33,145 bases of DNA from a virus (Duplodnaviria > Heunggongvirae > Uroviricota > Caudoviricetes): the IMG/VR virus record IMGVR_UViG_2879742664_000006. The stretch is one strand, 5' to 3'. Of this stretch, positions 2,945-6,041 are shown one piece after another. The stretch's first letter is position 1; every line of letters begins with the position of its first letter. The notes beneath the pieces were generated by a model. The model saw only the letters and a program-made list of their open reading frames with translations, had not been told where the DNA came from and ran no database searches. The position numbers and the translations under genes were made by a program.

Positions 2945-3550
2945 AACCGCAAAAAAGCGAACGTCATGCGCCCGGTGGAGTACCAGAACGGCGAAGCATT
3001 CACTATCCGTAACGTACAGGTTATGCCTGAATCCATTCCGGCTGGCTTTAAGGCACTGGCTGACATGAGTCCGTTTGAATCCCTGCTGATTGTGGATTTG
3101 GGCGGAACCACGCTGGATGTGGCAAAGGTTCAGGGGCAACTGGCAGGTATCAGCCAGGTGTTTTGCGATCCACACGTGGGCGTTTCTCTGATGGCCGATG
3201 CCGTACTGTCGGTGATGGCCACTAACGGTATGCGCACCAGTCACCACATCGCCAATACCATTATCGAACATCGCCATGATGAAGCCTGGCTGCGCCAGCA
3301 CATCCACAATGACGCGCATTACGCCAGCCTGATGGCGGTAATTCGTGAAAAGGAAGAAACACTGAAACAACGCGTGATCCGCGCGCTGGCGGTTTTTTCG
3401 GGTTACGGGCGGGTGATGGTTGTCGGTGGAGGGGCGGAGATTGTGGCACCCGCTATCCGCGAAGCCTGCGGAGTTAATGCGACTTTCATCGCGGACGGGG
3501 TGCCACAGTTTGCTCTGGTTAATGGGCTGTACGCAATGGACAAGGAGTAA
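2945..3550 (+). pseudogene. ParM/StbA-like actin-type plasmid segregation ATPase, 5'-truncated by IS911 (C-terminal ~200 aa remain)
   Basis: Contains the actin-fold phosphate-2 motif LIVDLGGTTLDVAKV, preceded by VMPESIPAG and followed by VMVVGGGAE, as in R1 ParM (from memory). The frame opens exactly at the IS911 boundary. Confidence 0.7.
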
Positions 3551-3554
3551 ACCA

Positions 3555-3866
3555 ATGACGACTCCAACCAGACGGATAAGTTTCTATCTGAAGCCCACCG
3601 CCGTCAAGAACGAAGGAGAAGCATGCGCCTGGCTGGACAGCCTTACACCAGAAGCCCGCAAAAGCGGCCAACGCGTGGCTTTTCTGGCCGGGCTGGCACT
3701 TCTGAAAATGAATCCGGCAGAGGCTTATCGACTGGCTGCATGGGCTGGTGATGAAGCGTTATCAGTGACACAAACCAGGACAGAACGCCCCGCATCACAG
3801 CCAGTATCAACCGCACAGATAACCAGTCAGATGGCCGGAAATATCCGGGCGTTATTTCCTGAATAA
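3555..3866 (+). CDS. ParR/StbB-like small DNA-binding partner protein (putative)
   Basis: 103-aa ORF immediately downstream of the parM-like gene, RBS aaggag at 3542-3547; N-terminal ribbon-helix-helix-like region (RRISFYLKP). Assignment rests on position and size. Confidence 0.45.
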   Translation: MTTPTRRISFYLKPTAVKNEGEACAWLDSLTPEARKSGQRVAFLAGLALLKMNPAEAYRLAAWAGDEALSVTQTRTERPASQPVSTAQITSQMAGNIRALFPE

Positions 3867-3929
3867 CACAACATCAGGGCGAGTTCGCCCTGCTCTCCAC
3901 CTCAGAACATAAACAAGGAGAACGACTTA

Positions 3930-4520
3930 ATGAGCGAAATCAACTATCAGGCATTACGTGAACGTTATTCACCTGTGCCAGTACCGAAATGCCCTATTTG
4001 CGGCGAGGAAATGTCAATTCAGCGAATATCTGGAGCACAGGTTGTTTATGCCTGCTCCGGTTATGGTGATGATGGAGATTTCAAAATTGGCCGAACTCTT
4101 GCTGACAAACATTATGAAAAATCACGCGTAACAGTGTTGGATGTCGGGGATCCTGAAGTATTGGCGCTACTTGATTGGCTGGAAACCAAAGACAACCGAA
4201 TCGCTGAACTGGAAAAAATCGCCACTGACTATGCACTTAAATTCCAGAAAGCACAGGACGCATTAAAGCATGCCGCTTTGCTGCATAGCAGGACGGCGCA
4301 ACAAACAAATAATTTTGCAGTATCGCTTCCGGACATAAGCGAATATTTCATTAATGACGTATTTCAGCCCTTGCGATACGAGCGGGATGTTGAAAGAGCC
4401 ATCATAAAGGCTGGCGGAAAAGCATTGTGGCAGGAGAAACACGAGGACAGAACGCATCAGTCATGCGATGTAAATTGTGGATGGTTTAGCCCACTGACGA
4501 CAGATAAAAATAACACCTGA
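3930..4520 (+). CDS. Hypothetical protein with N-terminal CxxC...C zinc-ribbon-like motif
   Basis: 196-aa ORF; CPICGEEMSIQRISGAQVVYACSGYGDD; central coiled-coil-like stretch. No recognisable family. Confidence 0.6.
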   Translation: MSEINYQALRERYSPVPVPKCPICGEEMSIQRISGAQVVYACSGYGDDGDFKIGRTLADKHYEKSRVTVLDVGDPEVLALLDWLETKDNRIAELEKIATDYALKFQKAQDALKHAALLHSRTAQQTNNFAVSLPDISEYFINDVFQPLRYERDVERAIIKAGGKALWQEKHEDRTHQSCDVNCGWFSPLTTDKNNT

Positions 4521-4947
4521 TCCCCCTCAAACCAGGGCGATAATCGCACATCGCCCTGCTGCACATTTGCACAATTTTTTTGAACGAATTTTTGCCCTTC
4601 CAGCCCGCGTGGCGGCTGGATCCGTCAAGGATCCGTGCGTGCACAAAAAAACGCGCTTTTTCTGCGCGCAGGTGACGGGGGAACAGCCCGCGTTTCAGGG
4701 GGTAAATAGCGTTCCCTTAACGATGTCGCAGCGACACGACAGAATGGCCGTATTTCTCACGCTGAGCGTGAAAAATACGTGAGGGATTCTGATTTGATGG
4801 GGTGAAAGGTAAGGCCGTCAAAATCGCACTGAGGCGGCGAGAACATGCAGTCAACGCGGTGGGATTGCGTAAGAGTCTGACCGTCGATGGTGGCGATAAA
4901 CTGGAAGGCGTCGTGAAATTATCTGACTGATACAGGAGCTGGAGAGT

Positions 4948-4998: not shown

Positions 4999-6041
4999 TC
5001 AGGATGTGGGCTGGATGTCTAACAGTGCGTAAGGGTTAAAGCGGATCACCTCTTCGCCAAGCCAGTCATTGATGTGCTTCATGGCCTCCATGACGGGCAT
5101 CAGCTCGTTAATTGCGTAAACCCGCGCGGCCTTCTCCACATCACCAAACGCACTTTTTTCACCCGGCATCGCCCCCATCAGTTGCGGCGGAACGCGGTGC
5201 GCAGCCAGCACATCATCACGGGATGCCGCCTTAACATTCATGAACTCATCCTTTGCGGTGATCTGCTGGAACGGCAAAATTTGCACCCCCTCTTTGCCCC
5301 CGTTGGGCGCATGAATGAGCACGTTTTTAAACGCACCACCACCACGCGCACCCTGTAGCGTTTCTTTCAGGGAGTCCATGCTTTCGCGGTTTACCTGCGC
5401 GGCACCGATGTAGATGATGCACCCGGCGTGGGATCCGTTGTCGTAATACAGTTTTCTGAACATGTCCGCCGAATGAGACAGGCTGGCCGAGAGTAATGCG
5501 CCGAGATATTCCGGCATGCCGTAGATTTCCTGGTTAATGTCAGGATTCATCAGGTGACACACTTTGCCTGGGCGAAACTGAAACGCATCCTTGCCATCCT
5601 GCACATACCTCCATGATTCAAGATCGCTTCCGCGTCGCATGTATTTCGCCAGGGCGTGCCGTAATTTAAGCGGTTCGCCGAGCATATTGCTTCGAAGCTC
5701 AAGGAATGCGTTACCGAACACAAACCAGTCCAGCGCCAGCGCCAGCGCCGAGAAATCCTGCCGGGAAAGCAGCGGGTGCGGGATGTAGCAACCGAGCAAT
5801 ACATTGCGCTTAAAATAAAGCGCAGACTGATGCCAGGACGTTTGCCGGGCAGCTCTTGCCAGACCGTACCAGTCCACCGGGGTTTCATACCACCGCCCGT
5901 TATCAGCACAGTACATATTGTCCAGCAGGTCAGGCGATAAGGACCATCAAATGTGAATGCACTGAGCGATGATTCTTTCCTGAGCGCATCAGCGAGATCA
6001 ATGCGTGAACTCATGCGCACTTTTTTATTTTTTCTGCTCAT
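4999..6041 (-). pseudogene. Q: P2 gpQ-like portal protein, interrupted by a 1-bp frameshift near 5917-5946 as sequenced
   Basis: N-terminus MSRKNKKVRMSSRIDLADALRKESSLSAFTFDGP in one frame (track ORF 5550..6041), remainder MYCADNGRWYETPVDWYGL...RFNPYALLDIQPTS in another (4999..5916). Combined length 1043 nt is one short of a multiple of 3. Start overlaps the terminase stop (ATGA). Confidence 0.8.

Follow-up and report, generated by a model that had tools for sequence, protein, structure and literature searches.

The open reading frame at positions 3930..4520 (+ strand) of the 33,145-nucleotide stretch of viral DNA analysed here (hereafter the window) encodes what is, on the evidence of its sequence, a clear member of the Ead/Ea22-like family (PF13935), and the gene occupies a cos-proximal cargo slot in which related P2-like phages carry other genes. 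A Pfam profile search matched the protein to PF13935 with E=3.6e-32 and a score of 112.3 bits, against a gathering threshold of 27; the match spans residues 2-140 of the protein and positions 1-134 of the 139-position model. The N-terminal signature, MSxI(D/N)xQALRE, is present as MSEINYQALRE and agrees with lambda Ea22 at 10/11 positions, and L9 and E11 of the signature are invariant in alignment A1. Three PHROGs were also matched (368, 1138 and 250), all of them in the unknown function category. The RefSeq protein WP_001289966, annotated as 'ead/Ea22-like family protein' and corresponding to the copy in strain FDAARGOS_1299, is identical at 195/196 residues, with E60K as the sole difference from the window protein, and the exact 196-aa sequence is a multispecies Shigella RefSeq entry found on 396 contigs. 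Together with the many IS elements present, this entry points to Shigella flexneri as the probable source of the window. At least 80% of the gene was found in 134 of 5,426 complete E. coli genomes. The first-pass annotation had called the protein uncharacterised and could not assign it a function; this has to be revised, as the protein is a PF13935 member that is named in RefSeq and its gene arrangement has already been catalogued. Because the family is annotated and the variable slot is known, we regard the finding as ordinary i.e. as a usual kind of gene in a described slot, with protein, family and locus arrangement all present in databases or in the catalogue. No homology to a conserved phage replication or structural protein was found; a PDB sequence search with the 196-aa protein gave no meaningful match, and an NCBIfam search returned zinc-finger or topoisomerase noise only, all of it below threshold.

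The open reading frame is intact, as had been reported: it begins with an ATG at 3930, runs on the + strand through 196 codons plus stop and ends with a TGA at 4520, and direct reading of the sequence places a ribosome-binding site, AAGGAG, at 3915..3920 (+ strand), 9 nt before the ATG. The two motifs quoted in the same annotation are both found in the translation, CPICGEE at residues 21-27 and YACSGYGDD at residues 40-48. The GC content of the gene is 45%, compared with 54% in the flanking genes. We found 515 database homologs of the 196-aa protein, and among the matches listed all but one carry PF13935. Comparison with the E. albertii copy gave a dN/dS of ~0.3 in the first two-thirds of the protein (the N-terminal module and the coiled coil described below), which are thus under purifying selection across species. 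The PF13935 score of 112 bits, the 515 homologs and the dN/dS of ~0.3 together show that the frame is coding and has not arisen by chance.

Alignment of the homologs shows the protein to be a mosaic of three modules, namely an N-terminal module, a coiled coil and a C-terminal cap, followed by a drifting tail. The N-terminal module, residues 1-78 (3930..4163, + strand), starts with MSEINYQALRE and continues into a putative CCCH zinc knuckle. All 106 of 106 homologs that bear the module keep Cys21, Cys24, Cys42 and His61, and these four are likewise invariant in alignment A3; the knuckle is likely, and the four residues form a predicted zinc site. The AF2 model of this module (pLDDT 64) contains a beta-hairpin at residues 29-41, which lies between the CxxC pair and the third Cys, and a helix at residues 55-65 that includes His61. 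Topoisomerase-I-type zinc ribbons share with it a CxxC knuckle before a beta-hairpin and a third Cys after it, and they were its best sequence and fold matches, all non-significant (Pfam E 0.01-0.1, Foldseek E=1.2). However, the second knuckle of the N-module consists of a single Cys and a distal His in the helix, which is atypical for a zinc ribbon. The zinc-ribbon families of Pfam gave E-values of 0.014-0.12, none of which passed the cut-off, and a Foldseek search of the PDB with the N-domain gave no match with E below 1, the best being E. coli topoisomerase I at E=1.2. Of the zinc ribbon proposed in the first-pass annotation, metal binding therefore stays plausible with four invariant candidate ligands, but the site has the form CxxC...C...H rather than that of a four-Cys ribbon and no ribbon family was matched significantly. 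Codon 60 (4107-4109) encodes Lys in the Shigella allele and Glu in all other examined module-bearing homologs; the change (DEHY to DKHY) directly adjoins the putative metal ligand His61.

The central coiled coil, residues 75-123 (4152..4298, + strand), is predicted by AF2 as a single helix and contains the motifs LLDxLE and RIAELE. Its heptad register has hydrophobic residues at 11/14 a/d positions, and in the homolog alignment L80, L81, L94 and RxAELE are invariant or nearly so. It is followed by the C-terminal cap, residues 125-171 (4302..4442, + strand; FAVSLP..EYFINDVFQPLRYERDVERAIIKAGGKALW), a unit of ~45 residues for which AF2 predicts a beta-alpha-beta fold. Word-indexed searches with the isolated C-module or N-module gave fragments only; the informative search was an exhaustive HMMER search of the C-module against 1.84 billion representatives, which matched 21 representative clusters. 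In these the cap always lies at the extreme C-terminus, in mosaic prophage proteins of 68-322 aa, and it is also found in the P22-like phages ST160/SE1 and in the 'Ea22' of PhiR46_1. The C-module homolog P0136, which ends in ...AVIRAGLKIKGD, links the cap to the K/RGE ending of the Ea22 proteins that have been studied, as does the ending ...RAGLKIKGD seen among the cap matches. That K/RGE motif is absent from the window protein, which ends in ...TTDKNNT. The last 25 residues, 172-196 (4443..4517, + strand), form a lineage-specific tail with pLDDT ~30 that is probably disordered, as judged from the model. HMMER found no homologs of the tail outside close relatives, and sister proteins lack it, stopping near residue 168-174. 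The dN/dS of the tail in the comparison with E. albertii is 1.17, a value based on small counts that is consistent with neutral change.

The description of the C-terminal region as helical is accordingly half right: there is a predicted helix, but it lies in the middle of the protein (75-123), and the C-terminus is predicted as an alpha/beta unit followed by a disordered tail. Structure prediction supplied this helix but no fold match, and the models were of low confidence, with a pLDDT of 59 for the full protein and 64 for the N-domain. We drew no conclusions about fold because of these pLDDT values and the null Foldseek result.

The N- and C-modules recombine independently among homologs. 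In the slot of P88-type phages at least four different N-modules are combined with the cap, and truncated copies occur too; this swapping and truncation suggest that the short conserved linkers are recombination joints, which appear to have been used in exchanges with Ea22-like genes of co-resident lambdoid prophages. Mosaicism of Ea22 has been published (PMC10834534), and the build described here agrees with it. Lambda Ea22 (NP_040612) and the Stx-phage Ea22 variants V1-V3 belong to the same Pfam family (PF13935 / IPR025153) and share with the window protein a variable N-region, a central coiled coil, a swappable C-terminal domain and mosaic evolution. With lambda Ea22 the protein has in common the identical signature MSEINxQALRE and the status of an early-operon accessory gene, the lambda gene being non-essential, but sequence similarity between the two is limited to the first 11 residues and short linker motifs. 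Lambda Ea22 lacks the CCCH zinc module, as does P22 EaD, and has its own unrelated C-terminal domain of 80 residues, whereas the protein described here lacks the terminal K/RGE of the lambda and Stx proteins and has instead the 25-residue tail predicted to be disordered; moreover, lambda ea22 lies in the lambdoid exo-xis region, whereas the present gene belongs to a P2-like phage and adjoins cos.

The closest counterparts of the N-module are found in other Ea22-like proteins i.e. ES18 gp41, ST64B Sb32 and orf92 of the P1-like phage D6, which are 60-71% identical over this module, keep all four putative ligands, have the same family annotation and are encoded in early accessory arrays. They differ from the window protein in having longer coiled coils and other C-terminal domains, and their phages are lambdoid or P1-like, whereas the phage studied here is P2-like.

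The gene belongs to a P88-type phage (Xuanwuvirus, Peduoviridae). In intact relatives the gene order is gpA replication endonuclease, parM, parR-like gene and Ea22-like gene, followed by the convergent portal gene and the terminase; in the window, too, the gene is convergent with the portal gene (4999..6041, - strand), as the annotation had noted. Alignments with P88, Shae_phiSM, 520873 and Chuche showed that similarity is lost after the parR stop codon (3866) and regained at ~4557, which defines a variable cargo slot at 3867..4556 (assigned to neither strand), from the parR stop codon to the conserved cos-side flank. The cargo enclosed by these flanks is a ClpX-type zinc-finger protein and a 112-aa protein in P88, a DUF4760 membrane protein on the opposite strand in Shae_phiSM, an 89-aa protein in phage 520873, and in Chuche (L006 2099-2905, - strand) a DUF3800 protein with a match to the candidate defence family PDC-M04A of PADLOC at E=2.6e-35. 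The hotspot reading of the locus holds because the cargo differs in these four phages, and the PDC-M04A match indicates that the slot can hold candidate defence genes.

The earlier placement of the gene in an accessory hotspot was therefore correct: its location is the cos-proximal gpA-gpQ slot, which in P2 holds old and tin, and comparison with P88-type relatives found unrelated cargo between the same flanks. Rousset et al. 2022 described a hotspot of variation at the cos-proximal locus between gpA and gpQ, which houses many validated defence systems, also carries non-defence cargo such as partition systems and toxins, and holds a partition system in about one quarter of P2-like phages (PMC9122126). 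The same study catalogued parM, parR and the Ea22-like gene together as one hotspot arrangement, and in it the name Ead/Ea22-like is confined to the locus table (file 6) and absent from the tables of systems evaluated for defence (PMC9122126).

The ClpX-type C4 zinc-finger protein (PF06689) that forms part of the P88 cargo is mislabelled 'carboxylate--amine ligase' in database records. Its gene was located in P88 (gp19, L002 1931-2263), in D6 (orf93, L008 3669-3989) and at L014 2084-2419, and both in D6 and in the prophage of E. albertii it is a neighbour of an Ea22-like gene; this proximity suggests that the two genes come from one circulating gene pool, as they seem to do.

Directly upstream of the gene, on the same strand and separated from it by a spacer of 63 nt, lies the gene for a ParR-like partition protein (Plasmid_stab_B; 3555..3866, + strand; PF10784 E=7.8e-23, PHROG 2515), which is likewise annotated in relatives, and upstream of this a 3' remnant of parM (2945..3550, + strand). 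This position 3' of parM-parR, together with the single arrangement that the three genes form in the hotspot catalogue, could point to an accessory of the ParM/ParR system e.g. a third partition factor or a centromere-associated factor of a plasmid-like prophage state. We consider such a role highly improbable and have rejected it, because the gene and ParMR are independently distributed: ParMR occurs with unrelated cargo in P88, Shae_phiSM, 520873 and Chuche, and Ea22-like genes occur without ParMR in E. albertii, in other P2-like prophages and in lambdoid phages.

The gene is flanked by two hairpins and is the last co-directional gene before a terminator-like element. In the parR-cargo spacer there is a G+C-rich hairpin at 3875..3892 (+ strand) that has no U-tract on the + strand; the stretch around it, 3864-3932, folds at -18.1 kcal/mol (z -3.7), and the hairpin travels with the parR flank in L001, P88, L009 and L010. 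The strong hairpin that had been reported near the end of the gene was confirmed as a 9-bp G+C-rich stem at 4533..4558 (+ strand), 13 nt past the stop codon; the surrounding stretch, 4515-4590, folds at -18.4 kcal/mol (z = -3.5 vs shuffles), and this hairpin travels with the 3' end of the gene, as it also follows the E. albertii copy. The hairpins at 3875-3892 and 4533-4558 share an identical 8-bp stem, CAGGGCGA / TCGCCCTG, a pattern that occurs nowhere else in the window and in 0/100 shuffles; the identity may be a coincidence or may mark a recombination joint.

Immediately beyond, at 4560..4581 (+ strand), lies the remnant of the terminator-like hairpin with which the early operon closes, consisting of TGCAC repeats plus T7 with one 10-bp repeat missing. 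A scan of the + strand of an intact relative found the complete form, GTGCACAAATTTGCAC followed by AATTTTTTTG, and the terminator-like hairpin with T7 is present in 5/5 phages (P88, Shae_phiSM, 520873, Chuche and FDAARGOS_1299). The TGCAC repeats have a 10-bp spacing, both at 4557-4581 of the window and at 7060-7095 of L001, and the loss of one 10-bp repeat in the window leaves a weaker terminator stem. We also considered the repeats as 10-bp-phased iterons, but they are more simply explained as the arms of the conserved terminator-like hairpin. Judging from the ends of the P884B11 record, cos is probably situated ~40-60 nt beyond the terminator flank.

In both the window and the intact relative, a crude consensus scan of the + strand that began where gene A ends and ran to the portal gene found no sigma-70-like site. 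ParMR is missing from E. albertii and from a second P2-like lineage; in both, the Ea22-like gene overlaps its upstream neighbour and ends a co-directional array whose first gene directly follows gene A. The Ea22-family genes of ES18, D6 and lambda sit in early accessory arrays. On the simplest reading the gene-A early operon has the Ea22-like gene as its last cistron, although a weak or ParR-regulated promoter could express it in lysogens. Expression of the present copy is uncertain because IS elements sever the upstream operon.

These data bear on the proposal that the gene is an anti-phage defence or superinfection-exclusion gene of the prophage, i.e. an analogue of old and tin that is expressed in the lysogen. 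Its slot, from the replication gene to cos and the portal gene, is the same as that of P2 old, tin and other hotspot cargo, including many validated defence systems (PMC9122126), and its content varies among relatives, one of which holds the PADLOC candidate PDC-M04A (DUF3800) at this site; the low GC content of the gene would fit a horizontally acquired moron, and the reading frame is still intact within a decaying prophage. However, a scan of the protein and its neighbours against PADLOC-DB v2 matched no family at E<=1, the protein has no sequence or domain similarity to P2 old, tin or the PADLOC models, and independent expression is not indicated: no consensus promoter of its own was found, and in other lineages the gene overlaps an upstream early-operon gene. 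Furthermore, lambda, ES18 and D6 have their homologs in early accessory arrays and one copy of the N-module lies in the nin-type region of a lambdoid prophage, none of these being defence islands, and the same hotspot also carries cargo other than defence genes (PMC9122126). No text connecting Ea22 with defence turned up in our literature searches. A role in defence, which the first-pass annotation had entertained, thus received no direct support, and we consider it unlikely.

We consider it probable, largely by analogy with the studied members of the Ead/Ea22 family, that the gene in this cos-proximal slot encodes an early-expressed, oligomeric, non-essential modulator of phage development. 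The gene would be transcribed with the early operon (gene A, parM and parR) upon infection or induction and would not be expressed from a repressed prophage. The protein would then oligomerise through its coiled coil, as in the Ea22 tetramers of lambda and P27, and its terminal modules would bind a host or phage partner. The predicted outcome is a damping of lytic development i.e. a non-essential bias towards lysogeny and host survival.

The experimental basis for this comes from work on other phages. Lambda ea22 is expressed from pL (PMC10834534) and is non-essential (PMC10695390); deletion of ea22 in lambda and Phi24B lowered host survival (PMC7093339), and it led to faster prophage induction and a higher phage yield (PMC10834534). 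Full-length Ea22 is a tetramer in lambda and P27, the lambda C-terminal domain is a dimer, and the fold of this domain has not been seen elsewhere (PMC10834534). The studies of Ea22-family proteins found no binding partner (PMC10834534, PMC7093339, PMC10695390). The lambda and Phi24B phenotype may not transfer to the window protein, because the proteins that have been studied differ from it in both the N- and the C-terminal modules.

The early position of the gene would also fit an early counter-defence or host-takeover protein, in which the swappable N-modules would be specificity determinants that neutralise factors of the host or of rival phages. The finding of at least four N-modules on the same cap in the same slot is typical of diversifying conflict, the gene travels together with the small ClpX-type zinc-finger gene in D6 and E. 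albertii, and there is the weak, non-significant resemblance of the N-module to topoisomerase-I-type zinc ribbons. On the other hand, homology to known anti-defence proteins is absent, every zinc-ribbon similarity is below threshold, and the sole experimental data on the family concern developmental timing and host survival; this role received no direct support, and we think it unlikely. A broader version of the idea, to which we give a low probability, would treat Ea22-like proteins as modular adaptors in phage-phage and phage-host conflict, in which a constant coiled coil and cap are repeatedly re-armed with different N-modules in the P2-type cos-proximal hotspot and the pro-lysogenic phenotype is a by-product of defence or counter-defence. 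If this were true, the CCCH zinc knuckle would be one of several swapped N-terminal recognition modules.

The modulator favoured above refers to the gene as it functions in an intact phage, and the prophage in the window is defective, with IS911 in parM and a frameshifted portal gene. The portal gene is a pseudogene that consists of two open reading frames in different frames: alignment to the intact 1047-bp copy in E. coli FDAARGOS_1299 showed a 10-bp deletion near codon 40, which lies between short direct repeats and shifts the frame, and a 6-bp in-frame insertion, GCGCTG. The parM remnant corresponds to approximately residues 119-320, its 5' part having been removed by IS911; in the Pfam search StbA_N was matched from model position 119 only, and the ParM C-terminal domain was complete. 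The IS911 match ends at ~2944-2948.

The upstream end of the window holds several further insertion sequences. The IS911 copy itself extends over ~1700-2948 inside parM (orfA 1732-2070, orfB 2097-2936); its insertion removes approximately the first 118 codons of parM and cuts the early operon off from the sequence upstream. Further upstream, at 56-1269, there is a complete IS3-family element with orfA of 108 aa and orfB of 296 aa, which we take to resemble IS629/IS1203, and which carries a programmed-frameshift ALIL pseudoknot at 337-453 (Rfam RF01497, 116 bits). A C-terminal fragment of an IS2 transposase lies between these two elements at 1442-1768 on the - strand (NCBIfam PRK09409 'IS2 transposase TnpB', positions 216-301/301), which indicates a nested pile-up of IS elements. 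Across the whole window, Rfam found nothing beyond the IS3 frameshift pseudoknot, and no tRNA genes were found.

This decay raises the question of whether the present copy has no function left and persists in a dead prophage, its frame being intact solely because decay set in recently. The frameshifted portal gene, the interruption of parM by IS911 with severance of the early operon, the neutrally evolving tail and the allele-specific E60K next to the putative ligand His61 would all fit such a history. However, the exact allele is carried on as many as 396 Shigella contigs and the N-module and coiled coil are under purifying selection across species, so that we think it quite unlikely; moreover, this explanation concerns the one copy and leaves the identity of the gene as an Ea22-family member unaffected.

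As a discovery the finding carries little weight, since the protein, the family and the arrangement are already public. Its value is descriptive: the boundaries of one common N-module and its invariant CCCH site have been defined, and the swapping of N-modules on a constant C-terminal cap has been documented. The results demonstrate that Ea22-family genes, which had previously been studied only in the exo-xis regions of lambdoid phages, recur as cos-proximal cargo of P2-type phages, and the module data provide starting points for finding the partner of Ea22.
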